A DNA stretch of 64,000 nucleotides from Candidatus Nomurabacteria bacterium RIFCSPLOWO2_01_FULL_39_18. GTDB taxonomy: Bacteria; Patescibacteriota; Minisyncoccia; Phycocordibacterales; UBA9973. How positions within the stretch are numbered: position 1 is the stretch's first letter; each line of letters starts with the position of its first letter. Shown here piece by piece: positions 5,973 through 55,564 of the stretch. Under the pieces are notes generated by a model that searched no databases, was not told where the DNA came from, and was given only the letters and a program-made list of their open reading frames with translations. The stretch lies in the NCBI GenBank assembly GCA_001787005.1, contig MFUV01000010.1, positions 9,955-73,954 on the forward strand, given 5' to 3'. The translations under genes were made by a program, and so were the position numbers.

Positions 5973-6062
5973 ATGCAATCCCGTACGAAATCTTATTAAA
6001 TTAGTTTCGTGTAAGGGATAAGTCAGTTTATAAATTTAATGAAATTTCGTACGGGATGCAAT
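5973..6062. promoter_or_regulatory. Inverted-repeat pair whose downstream arm overlaps the frr start codon
   Basis: Arms 5973-5991 (tgcaatcccgtacgaaat) and 6044-6062 (atttcgtacgggatgcaat) are complementary with a 1-nt bulge. Confidence 0.5.
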
Positions 6063-6607: not shown

Positions 6608-7695
6608 ATATATTGATTTTTTTGATAATACTATTAGTGCTGGTTCTTGTCCACGAGTTTGGGCATTTTTTTACAGCAAAAAGATTTGGTATCAGAGTTG
6701 ATGAATTCGGATTCGGTTTCCCGCCAAAATTATTTGGGATAAAAAAAGGAGAAACAGAGTATACTTTCAACCTTCTACCTTTGGGTGGTTTTGTTAAAAT
6801 TTTTGGTGAGAACCCAAACGAAGAGAACACAAATGGACCAGATGCGGATAGAAGCTTTATCAATAAACCTAAATGGAAGCAAGCAGTAGTCCTCTTTGCC
6901 GGAGTGCTGATGAATTTTTTATTGGCATGGGTGTTGTTTTCTTTTGGATTTATGTCTGGACTTCCAACTTCAGTCGGAAGCGGAGTTGGGAATGGAGAAC
7001 TCACAGATGTGAACTTGGTGGTAGTCTCTGTTTCACCGAATTCTCCCGCAGAAACTTCCGGACTAAAATCTGGCGATAAAATAGTTTTTATCGGGAAGGG
7101 TGGTCTTTCTACAACCTTTATTAGCCCAGAAACAGTGCGGTCTTTCGTAGCAGGAGGCGGAGAAATAGAAATAGGATACTTGCGTGGAGGAAATAAAACA
7201 GAAAATTTTACTAAAATTTATCCAAAAAAAAATGGGGGCGAGGAATATGTCATCGGAATAGCCATGGATCAAATAGGCATAGCCAGATTACCTGTTTTTA
7301 CCGCACTTTGGGAAGGAATGAAGTTAACCCTGCTTTTAACCAAAAGCACTGCGGTGGGGCTCTATACGCTTGTTGTGGAAGGATTGAAGGGCCAAGGAAG
7401 CCTAGATAGTATTACCGGTCCGATAGGTATGGTGGGGATTGTAGGGGATGCTTATGAATTTGGTTTTGTTTACCTGTTGTCTTTCGCGGCGCTAATTTCT
7501 ATTAATTTATCAATCATAAATCTTGTTCCATTTCCAGCGCTTGATGGCGGACGACTTTTCTTTTTGCTGATTGAAAAAATAAAAGGTTCACGGATCAATC
7601 CAAAAGTCACCAACATGACCAACATGATTGGTTTCGGTATTTTAATACTCTTAATGCTTGTTGTGACTTATCATGATGTGGTGAAGTTGTTTTAA
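6604..7695 (+). CDS. rseP: RIP site-2 zinc metalloprotease with PDZ domain
   Basis: HEFGHFF zinc motif, PDZ segment, C-terminal LDGG motif, multiple TM segments. Confidence 0.85.
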   Translation: MNILIFLIILLVLVLVHEFGHFFTAKRFGIRVDEFGFGFPPKLFGIKKGETEYTFNLLPLGGFVKIFGENPNEENTNGPDADRSFINKPKWKQAVVLFAGVLMNFLLAWVLFSFGFMSGLPTSVGSGVGNGELTDVNLVVVSVSPNSPAETSGLKSGDKIVFIGKGGLSTTFISPETVRSFVAGGGEIEIGYLRGGNKTENFTKIYPKKNGGEEYVIGIAMDQIGIARLPVFTALWEGMKLTLLLTKSTAVGLYTLVVEGLKGQGSLDSITGPIGMVGIVGDAYEFGFVYLLSFAALISINLSIINLVPFPALDGGRLFFLLIEKIKGSRINPKVTNMTNMIGFGILILLMLVVTYHDVVKLF

Positions 7696-7698
7696 AGC

Positions 7699-7742
7699 AC
7701 ATAAGTCAGACATGTGGGAACTCCCACATGTCTGACTTATGT
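7699..7742. repeat. 44-bp near-perfect palindrome; ACATGTGG palindromic-element family
   Basis: 20-bp arms cataagtcagacatgtggga / tcccacatgtctgacttatg; related copy in-frame inside topA at 22052. Confidence 0.6.
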
Positions 7743-7753
7743 AGTATAAAAGT

Positions 7754-8603: not shown

Positions 8604-11006
8604 ATGACTATAAAAATTTATAAAAATAAAACCAGAGTGGCGTTGCTCTGTGGCGGACCATCGCTTGAGCGAGGGATATCATTGAACTCTGCTCGAAGCT
8701 TACTTGATCATTTGGGCAGTTTAGACGTGGATATTATTCCTATTTATTTCAACGAACAAAAAAAGCCATACAAAATATCTACTGCACAACTTTACTCTAA
8801 CACCCCGAGCGATTTTGATTTCAAGCTGGGCGGAACAAGCAAGGAACTTTCTCTGTCTGCTCTAGTTCGTATCTTGAAAAATGTTGACATTGTTTTTCCA
8901 TGTATGCACGGCAGTTTCGGTGAAGATGGGAGAGTTCAAAGTTTTCTTGAGAAATATGATATTCCATTTATTGGTTCTTCCTCAAAATCTTGCAAAATGG
9001 CTTTTGATAAATATAAAGCCAATGAATATATCCGTTCACTTGGATTTTATGCGCCCAATTCTATTGTTATTAAAATTACCGACACAAAAAAAGAAATTGA
9101 GAAAAAAGTAAAACAGTTTTGGAAAACTGAAAGAATCACTCGCGCCATAGTGAAGCCTGCTTCTGGTGGCTCAAGTATCGGCGTGTTTTCTGTGGCAAAT
9201 GAAAAGGACGCAATGGAAGCTATCGAGAAATTATTTAGCAAACGCATGGACACTCGAGTGGTAGTGGAACATTTTGCGAAAGGCAAAGAATTCACGGTGA
9301 TTATTTTACAAAACAGATTCAATATGCCCGTCGCTATTTTGCCGACAGAAATGGAAATGGATTACGAGAAACATCAGTTTTTTGATTTTCGAAAAAAATA
9401 TTTACCGACCAGACAGGTAACCCATCATTGTCCACCAAGATTCAAAAACGAAATAATCGAAAAAATACAGATAGAAGCGGAGCAACTCTTCTCCGTCCTG
9501 GGAATGCGGGACTTCGCCCGCTTCGATGGCTTCTTAATGCCTGACGGCAATATCTGGTTTTCTGATTTTAATCCGATTTCTGGCATGGAACAAAATAGTT
9601 TTTTATTTCAACAAGCTTCCAGAATCGGCTTTTCCCACCAAGATCTTTTTCGCTTTATAATGAATAACGCATGTCTTCGACGAAATATTCCCATACAAAT
9701 TAAAAATAAATTTACAAGTGGGAAACGCAAGTCTGTTGCAGTAATTTTTGGTGGGGAAACGGCAGAAAAACAAGTCTCACTGATGAGCGGAACAAATGTT
9801 TGGTTAAAATTGCGCGGGTCGGAGATTTATAAACCTTTTCCTTATTTATTAACGAAGAATAAAGAAGTCTGGGAGCTCCCGTATTCTTATATCCTCAATC
9901 ACACTGTTGAAGAAATAGTTGAAAATGCTCAGAATGCCAAAAGAGATATCGAGAGACTTTTTTTCTTAATTGAAAAGGTAAAAATTAAATTATTTTTAAA
10001 TCAATCCGATACTACTGAAGAGTTTTTTATGCCAAAGAAATTTCAACTAAATCAGATATTAAAAAAGCACCCGTTTATTTTCCTTGCTTTGCATGGCGGA
10101 GTTGGTGAAGATGGTACCTTACAAAAAGTTCTAGAGAACAAAAAAATAAAATTTAATGGTTCGGGAAGTGTTGCGTCTCATTTGTGTATGGATAAATGGG
10201 AAACAAATGAAACGATTGGACAAGCCGAAATAAAAGGGGTGGGCGTGGTAAAACATGTATTATTTAAAATAAAAGATGTTCCTGAAAATTTTAATAATGA
10301 ACTCTTAGAAGCACACTGGAGAATGTTGATGCAGCGATTGGACGCAAAAACCATAATCGGTAAACCCCGGGGCGATGGCTGCTCGGCTGGCGTAGTCAGA
10401 CTTTTTAATAGAAAGGATTTAGCTACTTATATAACTCTGATCAGAAAAAAAGTTCCAGTAGCACTTCCAAATACTTTTACCAATCAGATGAACAGTATTG
10501 ATATGCCAGAAGGAGAAGTGCAGGATATAATTTTTGAATCCTTCGTCGAGACAGACAGATTAAAAGTTCATGGCAGTAAAATTATGTATACTCTAAAAAG
10601 TGGATATGTAGAAATGACTGTTGGCGTGTTGGAAGATCATGGACGAATCAAATCTTTCTCACCTTCAATTACTGTGGCAGAAATGGCGATACTTTCTGTG
10701 GAAGAAAAATTTCAAGGCGGCACGGGAGTTAATATTACGCCACCACCTCATGAAATTGTTTCCAATAAAAGTCTCAATAAGATAAAGAGTTTAGTCGAAA
10801 AAGTTAGCGAATGTGTCGGTATTCGTGGCTATGCGAGGATAGACATATTTGCTCATGTTAAAACCGGTAATATTATTGTGATTGAAATCAACACCTTGCC
10901 GGGGCTTACCCCTTCAACTGTGCTCTTTCATCAGGCATTAGCAGAAAATCCGCCAATTTATCCATTACAACTATTTGAGAAAATTATAAAAAATGCTAGA
11001 TATTAA
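8604..11006 (+). CDS. ddl: tandem-duplicated D-alanine--D-alanine ligase-like ATP-grasp protein (Ddl-Ddl fusion)
   Basis: 800 aa; N-half has the Ddl N-domain and ATP-grasp (IVKPASGGSSIGV..). C-half repeats the N-domain (KRKSVAVIFGGETAEKQVSLMSG) and has a second grasp core (KPRGDGCSAGV..ARIDIF..EINTLPGLTP). Confidence 0.7.
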   Translation: MTIKIYKNKTRVALLCGGPSLERGISLNSARSLLDHLGSLDVDIIPIYFNEQKKPYKISTAQLYSNTPSDFDFKLGGTSKELSLSALVRILKNVDIVFPCMHGSFGEDGRVQSFLEKYDIPFIGSSSKSCKMAFDKYKANEYIRSLGFYAPNSIVIKITDTKKEIEKKVKQFWKTERITRAIVKPASGGSSIGVFSVANEKDAMEAIEKLFSKRMDTRVVVEHFAKGKEFTVIILQNRFNMPVAILPTEMEMDYEKHQFFDFRKKYLPTRQVTHHCPPRFKNEIIEKIQIEAEQLFSVLGMRDFARFDGFLMPDGNIWFSDFNPISGMEQNSFLFQQASRIGFSHQDLFRFIMNNACLRRNIPIQIKNKFTSGKRKSVAVIFGGETAEKQVSLMSGTNVWLKLRGSEIYKPFPYLLTKNKEVWELPYSYILNHTVEEIVENAQNAKRDIERLFFLIEKVKIKLFLNQSDTTEEFFMPKKFQLNQILKKHPFIFLALHGGVGEDGTLQKVLENKKIKFNGSGSVASHLCMDKWETNETIGQAEIKGVGVVKHVLFKIKDVPENFNNELLEAHWRMLMQRLDAKTIIGKPRGDGCSAGVVRLFNRKDLATYITLIRKKVPVALPNTFTNQMNSIDMPEGEVQDIIFESFVETDRLKVHGSKIMYTLKSGYVEMTVGVLEDHGRIKSFSPSITVAEMAILSVEEKFQGGTGVNITPPPHEIVSNKSLNKIKSLVEKVSECVGIRGYARIDIFAHVKTGNIIVIEINTLPGLTPSTVLFHQALAENPPIYPLQLFEKIIKNARY

Positions 11007-20959: not shown

Positions 20960-23269
20960 TTAGTCTGCGATCTTTTTCATTTTATCTGGTCGAAAGTTGG
21001 GACACGCCTTATTTGAACAGCGTTCAGGAATGGTTTTCGTGCCCTCCATCATTAGGCTTCCGCATTTGTCGCAGATTTTGCCGGTTGGCTTAGCTTTGAT
21101 TGCAAATTTACAATTTGGATAATTTGAACAGGAATAAAAAATTCCAAACCTGCCGCGACGTTCCGAGATGTCGCCCTTCTTGCAAGTGGGACAAATTACC
21201 CCTGTTCTTTTTTTAGCCTCTTCGGCTTCGTCTTTTTTAATAAATTTACATTTCGGATAACGCGAGCAAGAGATGAACGAGCCCGTGCCATCGCGCCTTT
21301 CTTTTACTACCAATTTTCCTCCATATACTTTTTTCTTTTTTTCGCCTGCCTGCGCAGGCAGACCACAGTCTGGGCACGTTTCGCCGGTTTCTTCTGGACC
21401 TTTTAGTTCCGTACCGTCTAGCATTAACGCGCCATTACATTCTGGAAACTTTTCACAAGAATAGAATTTGCCCCCACGAGAAAGTTTGATAATCATTTTT
21501 GCCCCGCATTTCGGACATTTTATATTCTCTGGAGCATTGCCCAGATTTGTGGCCTTTTCCAATTTTTCCTTTGATTTAACATCTTTGGAAAATGGTCCAT
21601 AGAAGTCTCGCAGGGTCTTTTCATATTCTCTTTCGCCTCGAGCTATCTCGTCTAGTTCATCTTCCATCTCGGCCGTGAAAGTGTCAGAGATATAATTTGC
21701 AAAATGTTTTTCTAAAAAGTCTGACACAACTTCTCCCACGTCGGTGGGGAACAAGGTCTTGCCTTCTTTCTTGACATAATCCCTCTCTTCAATCGTTCTC
21801 ATAATAGACGCATAGGTACTGGGTCTGCCGATGCCCCTTTGCTCCAATTCTTTAATAAGTCCCGCTTCACTATATCTGCCTGGCGGCTCGGTGAACTTCT
21901 CTTCGCTGGTTAAATCAAGCAACTTTAATTTCTCTCCCGCCTTACATAGAGGTAGTTCAACATCCTCACCCCGAGCTCCAGTGTCTACCGCAAGCCACCC
22001 TCCAAAAAGAAGTCGTGAACCAGTGGCAGAAAAATTCGGAAAGTCAAAGTCCCCACATGTCGGACATGTGGAGTCCACATGTCCGACATGTGGGACAACA
22101 TTTGCCGTAATTTTGGTCTTTAGTAATTTAGCATCAGTCATTTGAGAAGATACAGCACGCTCCCAGATGAGCCGGTAGAGCCTATCTTGGTCATCGCTCC
22201 CTGTGTGTAACTTTTCAACATGCGTCGGACGGATAGCTTCGTGCGCTTCCTGGGCATTTTTTGACTTAGTTTTATAAATTCTATTATGTGCATATTTGTC
22301 ACTGTATTCTTTTTTTATAAAAGATAATATTTGGTTTTGGGCGACAACGCCAAGATTCGTACTGTCCGTACGCATGTAGGTAATATGCCCCGCTTCGTAA
22401 AGTTTCTGCGCTATCTGCATTGTCCGCGAAGGAGAGTAGCCAAGCCGTGAACTGGCGGTTTGTTGAAGTGTTGAAGTAGTAAAGGGCGCACGAGGAACTC
22501 TTTTTTGTTCTGATTCTTTCACGTCTTTAACTACCCAATTTCCATTTTCCCCCGTCTCTAAAATCTTTTCAACCAATTTCTGATCACGAGGCTCTTCGGA
22601 ACATTCCAAAGTAATTTTTTCCCCTCCTGCCTGAGGAGGGGTGCCCTTTAGGGTGGGGTGGTGGGAGGTCTCGAAAAGTCCTAATATTTTCCAATATTTT
22701 TCTGGAACAAAAGCGCGGATTTCTCGTTCACGTTCCATTATTATGCGAAGCGCAGGGGATTGCACACGCCCGGCCGAGAGTCCATAACGAACTTTTTTCC
22801 AAATCAACCCAGAAAGATCGTAGCCAACCAATCGGTCTAAGACTCGCCGCGCTTCTTGTGCTTTGCGTAAATTTGTGTCAATTTTCCTCGGATTCTTTAG
22901 CGCTTCTTCTACAGCTTCTTTTGTAATCTCATGAAAGGCGACTCTTTCTATCGGCGCCTTAACCTTCTTATCTTCATCCAGAAGCGTTTCTATGTGCCAG
23001 GCAATAGCCTCTCCTTCACGGTCGGGATCTGTTGCTAAGATTATTTCACTTGCTTTCTCTGCCAAGACTCTCAAATCGTGAACAACTTTTTCTTTTCCCT
23101 TGGAAATTTCATAATGCGGAATAAAACCTCCTTCAATATTGATCGCTTGTTTGTTTGATTTCGGCAAATCGCGAATATGCCCGACTGACGCACGCACGGC
23201 AAATGCGCCCTCGAGATATTTTTCAATAGTCTTTGCTTTTGATGGTGATTCAACAATTAATAATTTCAT
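20960..23269 (-). CDS. topA: DNA topoisomerase I with C-terminal zinc ribbons
   Basis: Toprim MKLLIVESPSKAKTI, catalytic Tyr region GHITYMRTDS, multiple CPxCG ribbons. Confidence 0.9.
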   Translation of the reverse strand: MKLLIVESPSKAKTIEKYLEGAFAVRASVGHIRDLPKSNKQAINIEGGFIPHYEISKGKEKVVHDLRVLAEKASEIILATDPDREGEAIAWHIETLLDEDKKVKAPIERVAFHEITKEAVEEALKNPRKIDTNLRKAQEARRVLDRLVGYDLSGLIWKKVRYGLSAGRVQSPALRIIMEREREIRAFVPEKYWKILGLFETSHHPTLKGTPPQAGGEKITLECSEEPRDQKLVEKILETGENGNWVVKDVKESEQKRVPRAPFTTSTLQQTASSRLGYSPSRTMQIAQKLYEAGHITYMRTDSTNLGVVAQNQILSFIKKEYSDKYAHNRIYKTKSKNAQEAHEAIRPTHVEKLHTGSDDQDRLYRLIWERAVSSQMTDAKLLKTKITANVVPHVGHVDSTCPTCGDFDFPNFSATGSRLLFGGWLAVDTGARGEDVELPLCKAGEKLKLLDLTSEEKFTEPPGRYSEAGLIKELEQRGIGRPSTYASIMRTIEERDYVKKEGKTLFPTDVGEVVSDFLEKHFANYISDTFTAEMEDELDEIARGEREYEKTLRDFYGPFSKDVKSKEKLEKATNLGNAPENIKCPKCGAKMIIKLSRGGKFYSCEKFPECNGALMLDGTELKGPEETGETCPDCGLPAQAGEKKKKVYGGKLVVKERRDGTGSFISCSRYPKCKFIKKDEAEEAKKRTGVICPTCKKGDISERRGRFGIFYSCSNYPNCKFAIKAKPTGKICDKCGSLMMEGTKTIPERCSNKACPNFRPDKMKKIAD
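21347..21360. repeat. 14-bp perfect palindrome tgcctgcgcaggca inside a topA zinc-ribbon loop (encodes LPAQAGEKK)
   Basis: Self-complementary; sequence context ttttttcgcctgcctg resembles the element at 22621. Confidence 0.4.
22052..22094. repeat. 43-bp perfect palindrome embedded in-frame in topA; ACATGTGG element family
   Basis: cccacatgtcggacatgtgga-g-tccacatgtccgacatgtggg; encodes the symmetric peptide PHVGHVDSTCPTCG. Confidence 0.6.
22621..22670. repeat. GC-rich palindromic element embedded in-frame in topA
   Basis: cccctcct-gcc-tgaggagggg tgcc... closely resembles the dus insertion cccctctcct-tgaca-aggagagggg tgcc; encodes GTPPQAGGEKI. Confidence 0.5.
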
Positions 23270-35247: not shown

Positions 35248-38145
35248 ATGATTTCCCGAATATTCGTAATGCTGAAAAATGGGGCGACGAGAGCAGATTC
35301 TTATCTTATCGATTCTAAATTCTTGAAAAAAGAGTTAATCAAACTTGCGGAAGCGCTGACTAATCCGATCCTAGAAAATTTCTCTATCAACAACTTGGAG
35401 GTCTTGCCTCCAAATGGAGGCAAGACCTCCAAGTTTACTTATGCGATTGAAATTGGTTTCAAGCCTGGGGTGACCGATAATGTTGGACACACCGTCGAGG
35501 AAATTGCCAGAGATCTGCTTGGTGTAAAAAAGAATCCTGACTTCCACGTGTATACTTCAAAAATTGTTTTCATCTCTCTTTCAAAAAAAGATGCGGAAAA
35601 ATACGCTCTTACTTTGTATAACCCACTAATTGAAAAATCACTGATAGTACCAGTGAAGAACAAAAAGATAAGTTTGCCTAAAAAAGTGCCAAAGGTTGTC
35701 CTTAAAAAAAGAAAACCGGTTATAAATGTTTCTCTTAAGGTTTCTGATGAAGAACTCATTAAAATCGGCAAAGAGGGAATAAAGGATGGAGACGGCACAC
35801 GCAGAGGGCCATTGGCGCTCGACCTGGCATCTATGAAAACCATTCAGGGATATTTTAAAAAATTAAAAAGAAGTCCGACAGATATAGAACTTGAGTCCCT
35901 GGCGCAAACTTGGTCGGAACATTGCAAACATACCATTTTCGCCAATCCGATTGATAATATAAAAGATGGCTTATATAAAACTTATATAAAAGGCGCAACC
36001 AATTTAATACGCAAACAAAAAGGTAAAAATGATTTCTGCGTTTCTGTTTTCTCTGACAACTCTGGTGGAATTATTTTTGATAAGGACTATTTAATCACAC
36101 ATAAGGTTGAGACGCACAACAGCCCCTCGGCACTTGACCCGTTTGGCGGAGCTATTACCGGCATCGGAGGGGTAAATCGTGATGCCATTGGCTTCGGACT
36201 TGGCGCCAAACCAGTTGCGAATACTTATGGATTCTGCCTCGCTCCACCAGATGAAAAAAGAAAATTATTTAGGGATAAAGACAGAACTCAAGCCTTGCTA
36301 CCCGCAAAAAGAATTATGGAAGGAGTAATAAAGGGGATTAATGTCGGAGGAAATTGTTCCGGTATTCCGACTCTTTCCGGATTTATTAAATTCGATGACA
36401 GATTTAGAGGCAAACCTTTAGTTTTCGCTGGAACAGTTGGATTAATCCCGAGAAAGAATGGTAGTAAACTTCTACACGAGAAGAAGGCAAGGGTGGGGGA
36501 CTATATTGTGATGGTTGGCGGAAAGGTAGGGCTTGATGGTATACATGGAGCGACTTTTTCTTCGGTAACTCTTGATTCAACTTCGCCCGCAACCGCAGTG
36601 CAAATTGGCGACCCCATAACTCAAAAAAAGTTAAGCGATGCGATAGTCAAAGAAGCCAGGGGATTAAATTTATACAACAGCATCACGGACGACGGCGCGG
36701 GAGGACTGTCTTGTTCCGTGGCAGAAATGGCAAAAGAATGTGGTGGAGCAAAAGTAATGCTTGAAAAGGTGCCCTTGAAATACCCAGGACTGCGCCCTTG
36801 GGAAATCTGGATTTCGGAATCCCAGGAGCGGATGACACTCTCTGTGCCAAAAAAAAAGTGGAAGAAGTTTAATGAATTGATGAAAAGTCGGGGAGTAGAA
36901 GCTACGGTGATAGGAAAATTCACAAATTCAGGGAATTGTGTTGTGAATTATAAAGGCAAAAAGATAATGGACCTAGATATGGAATTCCTGCATAATGGAC
37001 TTCCCAAACAGCATTTAACCACGATTCCATATTTACAAAATAATAAAGAGCCTCAAATTCCCAAAAATTCATCACTTACAAAAACTTTGGAAAATTTGCT
37101 GGGAAATAATAACATCAGCGGTTTTTCTTATATCTCACAACAATATGACCATGAGGTGCAAGCGTCTTCTGTATTAAAACCTCTCTCGGGCAGGGGTCGC
37201 ATCAACACCGATGCGCAAGTTTTCCGGCCAGTTCTAAGTTCGGAAAAGGGCGTTATTCTGTCTACCGGAGTTTATCCTTCATATGGAGACATCAATACTT
37301 ATTACATGGCGGCTTGCGCGTTAGATACAGCAATTCGAAATATTATTGCTTCTGGTGGGTCACTATCTAATCTTGCGATCTTGGATAATTTCTGTTGGTG
37401 CTCGTCGTATGATAAAACTCGCTTGGCACAGCTTGTGGACGCAGTAAAGGCATGCTACGACTACGGAGTGGGCTACGGCACGCCTTTTATATCCGGTAAG
37501 GACAGCATGTTTAATGATTTTAGGGGTTATGATGAGAAGGGTAATCCTATCGCTATTTCTATCCCGCCAACACTGCTCATCTCGGCAATTGGAGTGGTGC
37601 CTGATATTTATAAAATAATTTCTCCTGAATTTAAAAATGTTGGAGACGTGATTTACTTGCTCGGAAAGACGGATGATGAGCTTGGTGGAAGTGAGTACTA
37701 TAAATCACTAAAGGCGGTTGGGAATGATGTGCCGAAAGTTAATTTGGAAAAAAATTTAAAAACATATTTAGCGCTTGAAAGGGCTATCCAGAAAGAATTG
37801 GTTGCTTCTTCGATTTCTGTAACTTCTGGGGGACTGGCAATAGCGCTGGCTAAGACATGTGTCGGTGGAATGCTCGGATGTAATATTAGCGTCAGGGGCA
37901 TGCCTGGAAGTTCAAAATCGGCCGATGCGAAGCTTTTTTCCGAAAGCCAGGGAAGGATTCTGGTATCTATATCGCCCCAAAATATAAGCGCATTTGAAAA
38001 AATCATAAAAAATATTCCTTATGCTAAAATGGGGAAAGTTGTAAAAGACGGAAAATTCACAATTACAGACAAAACAAAAATAGTTAAAACCGATGTTAAA
38101 AAACTGTACAAAATTTATCACAGATTTTCAGAAAAAATGAAATGA
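35248..38145 (+). CDS. purL: phosphoribosylformylglycinamidine synthase subunit PurL with N-terminal PurS-like domain
   Basis: 965 aa; N-terminal segment FKPGVTDNVGHTVEEIARDLLG resembles PurS; AIR-synthase-related repeats follow (ETHNSPSALDPFGGAITGIGG). Confidence 0.85.
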   Translation: MISRIFVMLKNGATRADSYLIDSKFLKKELIKLAEALTNPILENFSINNLEVLPPNGGKTSKFTYAIEIGFKPGVTDNVGHTVEEIARDLLGVKKNPDFHVYTSKIVFISLSKKDAEKYALTLYNPLIEKSLIVPVKNKKISLPKKVPKVVLKKRKPVINVSLKVSDEELIKIGKEGIKDGDGTRRGPLALDLASMKTIQGYFKKLKRSPTDIELESLAQTWSEHCKHTIFANPIDNIKDGLYKTYIKGATNLIRKQKGKNDFCVSVFSDNSGGIIFDKDYLITHKVETHNSPSALDPFGGAITGIGGVNRDAIGFGLGAKPVANTYGFCLAPPDEKRKLFRDKDRTQALLPAKRIMEGVIKGINVGGNCSGIPTLSGFIKFDDRFRGKPLVFAGTVGLIPRKNGSKLLHEKKARVGDYIVMVGGKVGLDGIHGATFSSVTLDSTSPATAVQIGDPITQKKLSDAIVKEARGLNLYNSITDDGAGGLSCSVAEMAKECGGAKVMLEKVPLKYPGLRPWEIWISESQERMTLSVPKKKWKKFNELMKSRGVEATVIGKFTNSGNCVVNYKGKKIMDLDMEFLHNGLPKQHLTTIPYLQNNKEPQIPKNSSLTKTLENLLGNNNISGFSYISQQYDHEVQASSVLKPLSGRGRINTDAQVFRPVLSSEKGVILSTGVYPSYGDINTYYMAACALDTAIRNIIASGGSLSNLAILDNFCWCSSYDKTRLAQLVDAVKACYDYGVGYGTPFISGKDSMFNDFRGYDEKGNPIAISIPPTLLISAIGVVPDIYKIISPEFKNVGDVIYLLGKTDDELGGSEYYKSLKAVGNDVPKVNLEKNLKTYLALERAIQKELVASSISVTSGGLAIALAKTCVGGMLGCNISVRGMPGSSKSADAKLFSESQGRILVSISPQNISAFEKIIKNIPYAKMGKVVKDGKFTITDKTKIVKTDVKKLYKIYHRFSEKMK

Positions 38146-53758: not shown

Positions 53759-54985
53759 ATGTCAGAATTTTTTAAAACAAGATATGTCACTGGTGTTGTT
53801 TTATTTATAACTCTCTTTTTCATTCTGGGTGTTTATGTGGGCTTCAACCATCGCTCCGAGATAGAAAAAGTTGCAAACCTTTCTGGAAAAGAAACTGCGG
53901 TAGCGACAGAAGCCGATTTTTCTCCTTTTTGGAAAGTTTGGAATCTTATAAATGAAAAATATCCAAGTGTCAGCGAAGTAACAGACCAGGAGCGGATTTA
54001 CGGCGCGATTTCGGGCTTAATGAGCTCCCTTGATGACCCTTACAGCGTATTTTTTGATCCAGAAGAAGCAAAAATGTTTCAAGATGAAATAGCCGGCAAT
54101 TTTAGTGGAGTTGGCATGGAAGTAGGCAAAAAAGATGGAGTGCTCACCGTCATAGCACCCCTGAAAGACACTCCAGCTTATCGAGCCGGCATAAAATCAG
54201 GAGATAAAATTTTAAAAATTGATCAAGTCATTACTATCGATTTCACTGTCGAGCAAGCTGTTAGATTAATAAGAGGGGAGAAAGGTACGGAGGTCACGCT
54301 CACCATACTACACGATGGAGAGAGAGAACCGGTAGAAATAAAAATTGTCCGGGATGTCATCAATCTGCCGACCCTAGACACAGAATTACGTCCTGATGGA
54401 ATTTTTGTAATAAAACTTTATAGTTTTTCGGCTATTTCCACTCCTTTGTTTCGTAATGCTATGAAAGAATTTGCTTCAGCGAAAACTGACAGACTTGTGC
54501 TTGACTTGAGGGGGAATCCCGGCGGATACTTGAGCGCCGCTGTGAATATAGCCAGCTGGTTCCTGCCAGAAGGAAAGATTGTTGTAACGGAAGATTATGG
54601 AAACAATAAAGATCCAGTAGTATTCAGAAGCAGGGGTTATGGCATATTTAGCGATAAATTTAAATTCGTAGTCCTAATAGATGGTGGATCCGCTTCAGCG
54701 TCTGAGATCGTAGCGGGCGCATTGCAAGATCATAAACAAGCAATTCTCGTGGGCGATAAGAGCTTCGGTAAAGGCTCTGTACAGGAAGTTGAAGATGTGA
54801 CGGCCGACACGATTTTGAAAATTACGGTTGCTAAGTGGCTTACACCTAATGATCATTTAATTGCTGAGACGGGCCTCACTCCAGACTATCCGGTTAAATT
54901 TACCAGAGAAGACGCAAATGCAAAGAAGGACCCTCAAATGGATAAAGCGGTAGAGTTGTTAAATAGTTGGCCGGGTATAAAATAA
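53759..54985 (+). CDS. ctpA: carboxy-terminal processing protease (S41) with PDZ
   Basis: GVGMEVG PDZ start, S41 catalytic GGSASASEI..K dyad region. Confidence 0.8.
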   Translation: MSEFFKTRYVTGVVLFITLFFILGVYVGFNHRSEIEKVANLSGKETAVATEADFSPFWKVWNLINEKYPSVSEVTDQERIYGAISGLMSSLDDPYSVFFDPEEAKMFQDEIAGNFSGVGMEVGKKDGVLTVIAPLKDTPAYRAGIKSGDKILKIDQVITIDFTVEQAVRLIRGEKGTEVTLTILHDGEREPVEIKIVRDVINLPTLDTELRPDGIFVIKLYSFSAISTPLFRNAMKEFASAKTDRLVLDLRGNPGGYLSAAVNIASWFLPEGKIVVTEDYGNNKDPVVFRSRGYGIFSDKFKFVVLIDGGSASASEIVAGALQDHKQAILVGDKSFGKGSVQEVEDVTADTILKITVAKWLTPNDHLIAETGLTPDYPVKFTREDANAKKDPQMDKAVELLNSWPGIK

Positions 54986-54993
54986 AAAATATG

Positions 54994-55102
54994 AATCCCG
55001 TTAGAAATTTACAAAACGGGATGAGATTATAAGATTAACAATAATCATCTATCTTTATTTATAAAAATATAAGTACGAATAGTATGATTTCTAAACGGGA
55101 TG
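54994..55102 (+). promoter_or_regulatory. inverted-repeat module AATCCCGTTAGAAAT ... ATTTCTAAACGGGATG; downstream arm contains the rplI start codon
   Basis: Arms 54994-55008 and 55087-55102 are complementary and separated by 78 nt; the first arm also forms a local hairpin atcccgtt/aacgggat after ctpA. Confidence 0.55.
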
Positions 55103-55564
55103 AAAGTGATATTTCTGCGCGATGTGCCCAGAGTTGGGAAAAAATATGATGTCAAAGAAGTCAATGACGGCTACGCCATGAATTTTTTATTTCCTAGAAA
55201 ATTAGCGCAAAATGCCACACCAAAGGCGCTAGCAGAACTTGAAACCCGAAAAAAAGATATCATATTAGAAAGGGAAGTGCAGGCAGACCTTTTAATGAAA
55301 AATTTGGAAGAAATAAAAGGAAAAGTCCTGCATATTAAAGCCAAGGCAGATGATAAGGGTCATTTATATTCCCAAATCCATGAAAAAGAAATCGTGGAAG
55401 CAATGAAGAGCGAACACCGGGCTGACATTACGGAAGAATTTATTGTATTAGAAAAACCGATTAAAGAAGTAGGGGAGTTCGAAATTCCGATAGAAATCAA
55501 GACCGCCGCCGGTGGCGAGGTAAGCAAAAAATCTTCGTTTAAACTCGTGGTGGAGGGAAATTAA
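55100..55564 (+). CDS. rplI: 50S ribosomal protein L9
   Basis: [36 protein letters not shown]. Confidence 0.85.

Follow-up and report, generated by a model that had tools for sequence, protein, structure and literature searches.

The rplI locus of a 64,000-nucleotide stretch of DNA from Candidatus Nomurabacteria bacterium RIFCSPLOWO2_01_FULL_39_18 (contig MFUV01000010.1, forward strand, positions 9,955 to 73,954; this whole stretch is referred to as the window) raises the question of how the arm of an inverted repeat comes to end in the start codon of a ribosomal protein gene. At this locus AATCCCGTTAGAAAT (54994-55008) lies 8 nt 3′ of the stop codon (54983-54985) of a ctpA-like open reading frame (ORF; Peptidase_S41/PDZ), and ATTTCTAAACGGGATG (55087-55102) lies 78 nt beyond it, the final three bases being the ATG of the L9 gene (55100). 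[quoted passage not shown] Its coordinates and sequences at all three genes were correct, and the inverted-repeat modules are present at the three start codons, with arms of the CGTACG type at frr. They likely constitute one non-autonomous palindromic mobile family of 65-124 bp, inserted in ATG-R-A at first codons, through which expression of the downstream gene may become coupled to upstream translation.

The modules at frr, rplI and murG each end in ACGGGAT, and the G that follows completes the ATG of the gene. In the window, the pattern of paired arms matched only these three copies, and it was absent from 100 shuffles, by which a chance repeat was rejected; ACGGGAT alone occurred 12 times, compared with 5.1 expected. 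All three regions folded to long hairpins of -26 to -32 kcal/mol (z-scores -3.5 to -6.4), and their interiors could not be aligned with each other, representing three subfamilies. A search of the window for more copies adjoining long ORFs found none.

Anatomy of the element and its target site

Species genomes (185,579 in total) were scanned with the pattern ATCCCGTNNGAA-N40-100-TTCNNACGGGAT. The search for more copies in other genomes, which had been proposed for the arm pairs, yielded at least 119 further loci, with 126 copies among the matches listed. A subset of 106 of these copies was oriented by the downstream gene, and the counts of anatomy given below rest on this subset; the cut-off for the call of a start codon was an ORF of 40 aa or more. 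The copies are 65-124 bp long and carry no transposase gene, and none of their ORFs exceeds 40 codons. Terminal inverted repeats of 13 bp are common to them, and the interiors are specific to subfamilies. The consensus of the ends is ATCCCGT(TA/AC)GAA(R) and (Y)TTC(TA/GT)ACGGGAT, and ends of 12-13 bp, ATCCCGTNNGAA(R) and (Y)TTCNNACGGGAT, were found in the 126 listed copies. The two variable bases were complementary between the arms in 101 copies, and the AC/GT arm variant was complementary in all five oriented copies that have it, the frr copy of the window included.

Copies of the subfamily A type (113-124 bp), to which the murG copy of the window belongs, have a stem that goes on beyond a 4-nt bulge as a second helix (GCCGCGATCGC/GATCGCGATCTGC and variants). 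Other subfamilies have a small local hairpin beside one arm, and types of 65-85 bp and of 103-110 bp were also observed. In subfamily A/B, the stem comprises 22 pairs, with 95% of the cells paired and compensatory changes in 9 of the 22 pairs, a level that was reached in none of 500 shuffles; in slid registers the pairing dropped to about 35%. Covariation of the arms in related genomes, on which the earlier claim had been made to depend, was thus present both as compensatory changes and as the matched AC/GT variant. The excess of G-U over A-C combinations (28 to 13 in subfamily A, 49 to 36 overall) was too weak to separate a constraint on RNA from a constraint on DNA.

In at least 106 of the 126 listed copies, the terminal AT and the G after it began an ORF of 40 aa or longer, showing that the repeat is tied to start sites and is not a generic one. 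The left flank was ATGN in 80 of the 106 oriented copies, and in 78 of these N agreed with base 2 of the right flank; seven other left flanks ended in ATG and five in ATGNN, directly at the element. The right flank was G-R-A, with A at position 3 in 97 copies. Identical bases on either side of the element, two in number, were seen in 84 copies, i.e. a target-site duplication, the length of which was 1 to 3 bp. Four copies were flanked by GTGA on the left and GA on the right, so that an old GTG start had been replaced by a new ATG start, and the AT of the new start therefore comes from the element. Donation of start codons, as claimed in the preliminary description, was borne out in this way. 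The new ATG stands directly before the unchanged coding sequence, and the original ATG persists, within its native context, on the upstream side of the element. The simplest description, read from the flanks, would be a target AT-GR-A in which GR is duplicated (2 bp, occasionally 1 or 3), and an element with AT at both ends. Movement would be brought about by a transposase or recombinase acting in trans, with a staggered cut of about 2 bp and a preference for AT-NN-A. At the ftsW starts of two metagenome loci (L164 and L169), which are otherwise matching filled sites, the relic ATG was intact (ATGA) in one and mutated (ATAA) in the other; the old start can therefore decay.

The copy at rplI (54995-55101, plus strand) is 107 bp long and belongs to a subfamily with an internal partial copy of the right arm. 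Its left terminal inverted repeat, ATCCCGTTAGAAA (54995-55007, plus strand), showed no mismatch to the reverse complement of the consensus arm. The right repeat, TTTCTAAACGGGAT (55088-55101, plus strand), has a 1-nt insertion, one A more than the perfect complement, and its terminal AT forms bases 1-2 of the start codon. A relic of the start before insertion is found at 54991-54994 (plus strand), where the old ATG (54991-54993) is followed by A, and the duplicated GA is seen on the left at 54993-54994 and on the right at 55102-55103 (ATGA-element-GA). The rplI gene itself (55100-55564, plus strand; Ribosomal_L9_N and Ribosomal_L9_C) thus starts with AT of the element and the duplicated G.

The copy at murG, ATCCCGTTAGAAA...CTTCTAACGGGAT-G, spans 62002-61882 on the minus strand (121 bp). 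It is a member of subfamily A, with a helix 1 of 14 bp, the 4-nt bulge and a helix 2 with GCGATCGC, and its old ATG has been lost. The ATG of murG (gene at 60741-61883, minus strand; Glyco_transf_28) lies at 61883-61881 and consists of the AT of the element and the following G. The reading frame of ftsW enters the left arm of this copy and ends at the TAG of the arm (61993-61995, minus strand; ...CAG CAA TCC CGT TAG). The octamer GCGATCGC (window 61980-61987) is the core of helix 2 in subfamily A, which is the largest subfamily. It is the octamer termed HIP1 in cyanobacteria. Its only occurrence in the window is that in the murG copy, and it does not represent a genome-wide HIP1 signal; a cyanobacterial HIP1 context was rejected, and because of the single occurrence in the window the likeness is probably a coincidence.

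The copy at frr, ATCCCGTACGAAAT...ATTTCGTACGGGAT-G, spans 5978-6057 on the plus strand (80 bp). It carries the CGTACG arm variant, both arms having changed together, and its arms extend to 25 nt with 92% complementarity. Positions 5973-5977 (plus strand) hold the old ATG (5973-5975) together with the left GCA (5975-5977) of a 3-nt duplication, whose right GCA lies at 6058-6060; the frr ATG is at 6056-6058 (plus strand), and the flanks read ATGCA-element-GCA. The neighbours of the three window copies are syntenic (ftsW-murG, holB-frr and ctpA-rplI). Directly downstream of murG, at 60249-60659 on the minus strand, lies an ORF of 136 aa with a TTG start, which by eye is a candidate small endonuclease of the DUF559/Vsr-like type.

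Distribution and mobility of the family

The at least 119 loci of the species-genome scan were found mostly in Patescibacteria of many classes. Among the 80 listed loci whose records were viewed, Patescibacteria lineages were named for 59, the term unclassified bacterium was used for 15 and six belonged to other phyla. The carriers among the Patescibacteria included Saccharibacteria, Nomura-, Kaiser-, Kerfeld-, Levyi-, Moran-, Yanofsky-, Taylor-, Jorgensen- and Vogelbacteria as well as Paceibacteria. Two of these six were long Planctomycetota contigs (L082 and L089) with histidine and cysteine biosynthesis genes, which also contained several copies, located at gene starts. The GC content of the listed loci ranged from 28% to 63%. 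Carriage by phages was rejected, as only one of 2.9 million viral contigs contained a copy. In DNA that had not been selected for the element, 17 copies were found per 295 kb, a density similar to that of the window (3 per 64 kb), and sampled Nomurabacteria-like genomes carried about one copy per 17-21 kb, corresponding to approximately 5% of their genes. The copy at rplI was about 80% identical over its full length to a copy before an unrelated gene in another Nomurabacteria genome (L011).

In Rfam searches of the window at gathering thresholds only three tRNAs were detected, and around the murG and rplI copies only matches at chance level were obtained (E >= 0.35). A hammerhead-like core was rejected, as no CUGANGA was seen by eye. 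A literature search, in which the arm sequence itself was included, revealed no MITE specific for start codons and no element with these ends, although its coverage was incomplete and an earlier description is possible. Neither 'start codon' nor 'Patescibacteria' appears in the text of a review on prokaryotic MITEs from 2024 (PMC10969869).

Metagenomes were scanned with the MurG protein of the window, which is 74% identical to MurG of a named Nomurabacteria metagenome-assembled genome, and 80 loci of 70-95% identity were obtained, 79 of them with a readable murG start. The start was empty in 73 and filled in 6; with the window and locus L053 added, 8 of 81 starts were filled. Locus L130 was empty in spite of 95% MurG identity to the window, and for each filled locus the nearest relative, at 82-97% MurG identity, was empty. 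In one pair of sites the duplication is directly visible, the empty site of L130 reading ...aaatttATGAAAATAG and the filled site of L185 reading ...aaatttATGA, followed by an element of 69 bp and GAAAATAG. Different subfamilies occupied one and the same site: the murG start was filled by at least two unrelated subfamilies (L185 and L173), the ftsW start by at least four forms in about ten of the same metagenome loci, and the frr start of L071 carried a subfamily different from that of the window within the same ATGCA...GCA flanks. In L072, two copies 6 kb apart were identical at 110 of 114 positions (96%). Tandem copies sharing GA were present in L024, L087 and L102, a nested or composite form was present in L124, and a solo right arm was found on a start codon in L085. 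Intragenic copies within long ORFs accounted for 7 of the 126 listed copies, and in all seven the length plus 2 was a multiple of 3 and the frame was open.

Dispersed copies and filled and empty orthologous sites thus point to mobility. Together with the terminal inverted repeats, the flanking duplication, the near-identical paralogues and the tandem, nested and solo forms, they uphold the earlier suggestion of MITE-like insertions that donate start codons. The element is very probably a mobile palindromic element at start codons, and is best read as MITE-like with start-codon specificity, since every feature by which a MITE can be tested was found except a cognate autonomous element.

Further observations were made at these loci. 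Composites of about 320 nt (L124, 510-829, with flanks ATGG...ATGG, and L077, 7263-7430) consisted of a left part of subfamily A, a shared ...GATCGCGATCCCGA(Y)ACC...ACGGGACAAGT... segment, a degenerate inner element and a right arm. L9 genes identical to that of the window were present on groundwater metagenome contigs. On one contig (L009, JGI 3300025311) an identical L9 gene was accompanied by the right half of the element only, and at about 160 nt upstream of rplI the left half and ctpA gave way to a methyltransferase gene in divergent orientation; this junction reflects either a rearrangement with its breakpoint in the element or a chimeric assembly. In the ftsW-murG spacer of L187, L196, L197 and L202, about 100 nt upstream of murG, another palindromic insert, TACCCTGTTAAAT...ATTTAACAGGGTGA, was seen; it may be a sister family, the arms being alike (CCC-GTTA-A) but different in sequence. 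The spacer of L146 contained yet another palindrome of the form CCCTACCCCGGGGATAGGGG, and in many empty sites (L133, L151, L156, L162 and others) a recurrent AT-rich motif, ...AAAGTTCATAAAGTTATAAAGTAT, was located in the spacer just before the murG ATG. Other palindromes were also noted in the window. Those at 7690-7751 and 22052-22094 are near-perfect, share the core CCCACATGTC(G/T)GAC...GTC...ACATGTGGG and may represent a second small repeat family or terminator hairpins; the first abuts the stop of an ORF ending at 7695. Those at 35392-35435 and 57198-57234 are perfect inverted repeats of 21 nt and 17 nt with loops of 2-3 nt (AACTTGGAGGTCTTGCCTCCA/... and GTGGATTGTGCGACATT/...).

Translation across the element

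The genes downstream of 105 copies represented 134 Pfam families, with SSB and sugar epimerases found four times each, hibernation factor and T2SS-F three times each, and RRF, L9 and TopA twice each. The association with one gene family by which a gene-specific cis-regulatory RNA would be recognized was not found, the most frequent family occurring only four times, and with so many families downstream a role as a gene-specific regulator is not supported. The earlier alternative of a shared translational control element fails in this respect, but it holds in so far as the arms bury the AUG: the mean minimum free energy of the family hairpin was -33 kcal/mol, and the probability that the right arm and the AUG are unpaired at equilibrium was 0.08. 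A Shine-Dalgarno core was found in 14 of 106 left flanks and in 17 of 106 3′ parts of the element. Use of a Shine-Dalgarno sequence from the old site was rejected in view of these few cores and of hosts that mostly lack such sequences at these genes.

In classical translational coupling, as in RNA phage MS2 or at overlapping ATGA junctions, a long-range stem that locks an AUG is opened by upstream ribosomes. A similar course would be conceivable here, with the arms pairing in the mRNA and burying the new AUG, and the gene being expressed by coupling. The stem would then be melted by ribosomes that complete the upstream gene, that initiate at the old ATG or that translate a small ORF in the loop. 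All three frames through the right arm could lead ribosomes to the gene. One contains UAA 4 nt before the AUG, another contains the UGA of AUGA if the second codon starts with A (this stop is absent in ATGG, ATGC and ATGT copies), and the third is in frame; read from the old ATG, the left arm contains no stop and encodes M-N/D-P-V-R. In 34 of 92 copies, the ORF that begins at the old ATG traversed the entire element and either reached UAA(-7) or UGA(+1) or continued in frame, compared with 13.5 +/- 3.2 for shuffled interiors. ATG-started ORFs of at least 15 codons that would deliver ribosomes to the gene start were present in 59 of 106 copies, compared with 28 +/- 4 after shuffling and 7 in antisense. 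An upstream ORF in the same direction had its end no more than 30 nt away from the element in 56 of the 106 copies; its stop fell exactly within the old ATGA in 13 cases and was the left-arm TAG in eight, the latter in other genomes. An internal GGGA(T) in sense orientation, often AACGGGAT, was found in 43 of 106 copies at 22-42 nt from the 5′ end, whereas the antisense TCCC was present in 4 of 106; the sense motif could sequester the left arm while the RNA is being transcribed.

The frames in the arms, the excess of through-frames and the tight operon junctions, all of them features of the sense strand, suggest that upstream ribosomes open the stem. From the through-frames, the position of the junctions and the internal GGGA it also follows that the polarity of the element relative to the gene is fixed. 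Thirteen copies sit on former ATGA stop/start overlaps, a feature in common with classical coupling; the element differs from it in that the stem is brought by a mobile insertion and recurs at many unrelated junctions. As judged from these sequence features, the coupling mechanism is a tentative proposal, for which we would put the chances at even or slightly below.

At rplI, a short upstream ORF, MNPVRNLQNGMRL-stop (54991-55032, plus strand; 13 codons), runs from the old ATG across the left arm and stops within the element. The internal sense-strand copy of the right-arm end, AACGGGAT (55015-55022, plus strand), is able to pair with the left arm in an alternative short 5′ hairpin. Either ribosomes on this ORF or retention of the left arm in the short hairpin would free the rplI AUG. 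A decoy hairpin that frees the AUG at equilibrium was rejected, as it had no thermodynamic support and the right arm was unpaired with a probability of 0.08 in both sense and antisense; a kinetic version of the idea is possible. In the murG copy, a small ORF, MKPRFKDISNIKYQKRELIAICF-stop (61888-61959, minus strand), has its start in the apical loop, is read across the 3′ half of the stem and terminates with the right-arm TAA, 4 nt before the murG ATG. Homologous small ORFs were found in the murG copy of L053 and in L111 and, on reading the sequences, also in L173, L193 and L200.

Several observations weigh against a mobile element that inserts at ATGRA and couples genes to upstream translation. 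Through-reading frames are present in only about a third to half of the copies, and in the window they are missing from the rplI and frr copies, whose upstream ORFs terminate early. Initiation at the old AUG should likewise be impeded by a stem beginning 5 nt beyond it. In approximately 1.3 Mb of fetched DNA, neither an autonomous element nor a transposase bearing these ends was detected; in the fetched loci no arm pairs spaced 0.3-3 kb apart around a transposase were present, only the composites of about 320 nt. The duplication varies in length (G, GR, GCA or GGA) and therefore does not define the cutting chemistry. About 34% of the non-intragenic ATGRA sites in comparable DNA are called starts, compared with roughly 90% of the copies, so that ATGRA alone does not account for the share of start codons. 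Copies at the murG site in five scattered lineages share one interior, 74-87% identical as compared with 71-76% for murG DNA, and copies at the ftsW site share a different interior, which would not be predicted by simple random transposition.

No target signal beyond ATGRA was visible, and the interiors showed no guide-like complementarity to the target flanks. The interior identity at murG-site copies was not correlated with the identity of murG DNA (r = 0.07). Import of filled murG alleles by recombination was rejected, as the 5′ flank of murG in the filled loci follows the nearest empty relative. Old selected insertions with frequent precise loss, spread of alleles in short tracts and gene-specific homing are three alternative histories. 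The position of about 90% of copies at real starts compared with about 34% expected from the ATGRA motif alone, the gene-specific sub-lineages, and the fixed polarity with small ORFs ending at the AUG led us to consider that the element actively homes to true starts, or even to particular genes, and has also been co-opted across Patescibacteria as a portable module of dependence on upstream translation. We consider this extended reading doubtful.

Alternative explanations and relation to known elements

A cis-regulatory RNA of the host, such as a translational operator or a riboswitch-like leader of a housekeeping regulon, would be inherited vertically. Conservation of the arms across phylum-level lineages, covariation of the stem, sequestration of the AUG and the recurrence of certain downstream genes (SSB four times, hibernation factor three times, RRF, L9 and TopA twice each) agree with it. 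It is nevertheless very improbable in view of the 134 Pfam families downstream, of starts that are filled or empty among relatives with 95-97% protein identity, of the start codon duplicated in the flanks, of different subfamilies at one site (L185/L173 at murG, window/L071 at frr), and of intragenic in-frame copies and the missing Rfam match. The same mobile element could alternatively act without coupling, its hairpin being a site of RNase III processing or stability that separates cistrons, as in the Correia elements of Neisseria, where cleavage by RNase III at the inverted repeats is documented (PMC10969869). Helix 1 (14 bp), the bulge and helix 2 (8-10 bp) form a duplex of about 22-24 bp, which is the size of an RNase III substrate, and most copies lie within operons. 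This function would leave the sense-strand excess of through-frames and internal GGGA unexplained, and the stems are shorter in copies of 65-80 bp; we regard it as unlikely.

An outward promoter inside the element would start transcription within it, and the left arm would be absent from the mRNA. The interiors are AT-rich, an exact TATAAT was present in 20 sense interiors compared with 7 antisense, and five non-start copies join ...GGGAT to TGAC, giving TTGAC. As paired -35/-10 patterns were found 4 times in sense but 10 times in antisense, as the subfamilies have no conserved motif in common at a constant distance from the right arm, and as no promoter is needed because most copies are operon-internal, this explanation is quite improbable. 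A site-specific recombination site (integron attC-like or Xer-type) or a REPIN moved by a RAYT, instead of a cut-and-paste MITE, is supported by the length of 65-124 bp, which resembles attC sizes, and by an attC-like architecture in which a conserved helix at the base is followed by an unpaired spacer, a second helix and a tip that varies. The arm sequences GTTAGAA and TTCTAAC look like attC core motifs, and a flanking identity of 2 bp also fits the crossover of a serine recombinase. The order is, however, 5′-GTTRRR...YYYAAC-3′ on both strands, the reverse of the attC order 5′-RYYYAAC...GTTRRRY-3′. The neighbours are syntenic housekeeping genes and not cassettes, and the arms begin with ATCCCGT and lack the GTAG or CGTC head of REP and REPIN sequences (tags per PMC3733652). 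No integrase or RAYT gene was seen, RAYT presence not having been searched for. Either form of this explanation is very improbable.

The mobile palindromic element at start codons can be compared with known small elements. Bacterial MITEs are shorter than 200 bp and have terminal inverted repeats, a short target duplication, no transposase of their own, many dispersed copies, filled and empty sites and, if co-transcribed, a stable RNA hairpin (PMC3184786, PMC10969869), and the element matches such MITEs (Neisseria Correia elements, Nezha and MITEAba12) in these features. It differs from them in that approximately 85-90% of the copies are located exactly on a start codon, which they rebuild, and in its fixed polarity; moreover, one 13-bp end sequence is retained across a superphylum while the interiors differ, and no insertion sequence is known as its parent. 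Mycobacterial interspersed repetitive units (MIRUs) are 40-100 bp units between operon genes, with short direct repeats, small ORFs and ends overlapping the adjacent genes (PMC3184786), and are the closest functional analogy to the through-reading ORFs of the element. They are, however, confined to Mycobacterium, are unrelated in sequence, have imperfect inverted repeats, and regeneration of a start codon has not been reported for them. In Neisseria, REP2 is a dispersed repeat that lies directly before genes and provides their ATG initiation codon (PMC3184786). It has no terminal inverted repeats, brings a promoter and a ribosome-binding site together with the ATG and marks co-regulated genes, whereas the element donates AT only and the genes tagged by it are unrelated. 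Rickettsia palindromic elements (RPEs) are inserted in frame and translated within the coding sequence (PMC10969869). They are about 150 bp long and nearly half of those first reported lay within ORFs, while intragenic copies of the present element are a minority and the first codon is the main site; the RPE-like in-frame insertions (7 of the 126 listed copies) showed no sequence relation to RPEs.

The element is notable for its start-codon specificity, for its breadth across the candidate phyla radiation (CPR) and for features that suggest translational coupling. Genomes of Patescibacteria are very small and gene-dense and leave little room for selfish DNA, and the element shows one way to spread in them: it lands on the first codon, its terminal AT restores the ATG and the protein remains untouched. 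The genes tagged in this manner include the essential murG, ftsW, frr, rplI, ssb and topA. Gene calling is affected, since two ATGs lie 70-125 nt apart, and 'MNPVR...' peptides may be called proteins, leading to spurious annotation. The interpretation of operons and the expression of CPR genes from native sequence are affected as well. The conserved 13-bp ends (ATCCCGTTAGAA...TTCTAACGGGAT) provide a probe for the moving enzyme and for DNA exchange among CPR lineages and with Planctomycetota. If the coupling is true, the element would be a natural portable device that makes initiation depend on upstream translation.

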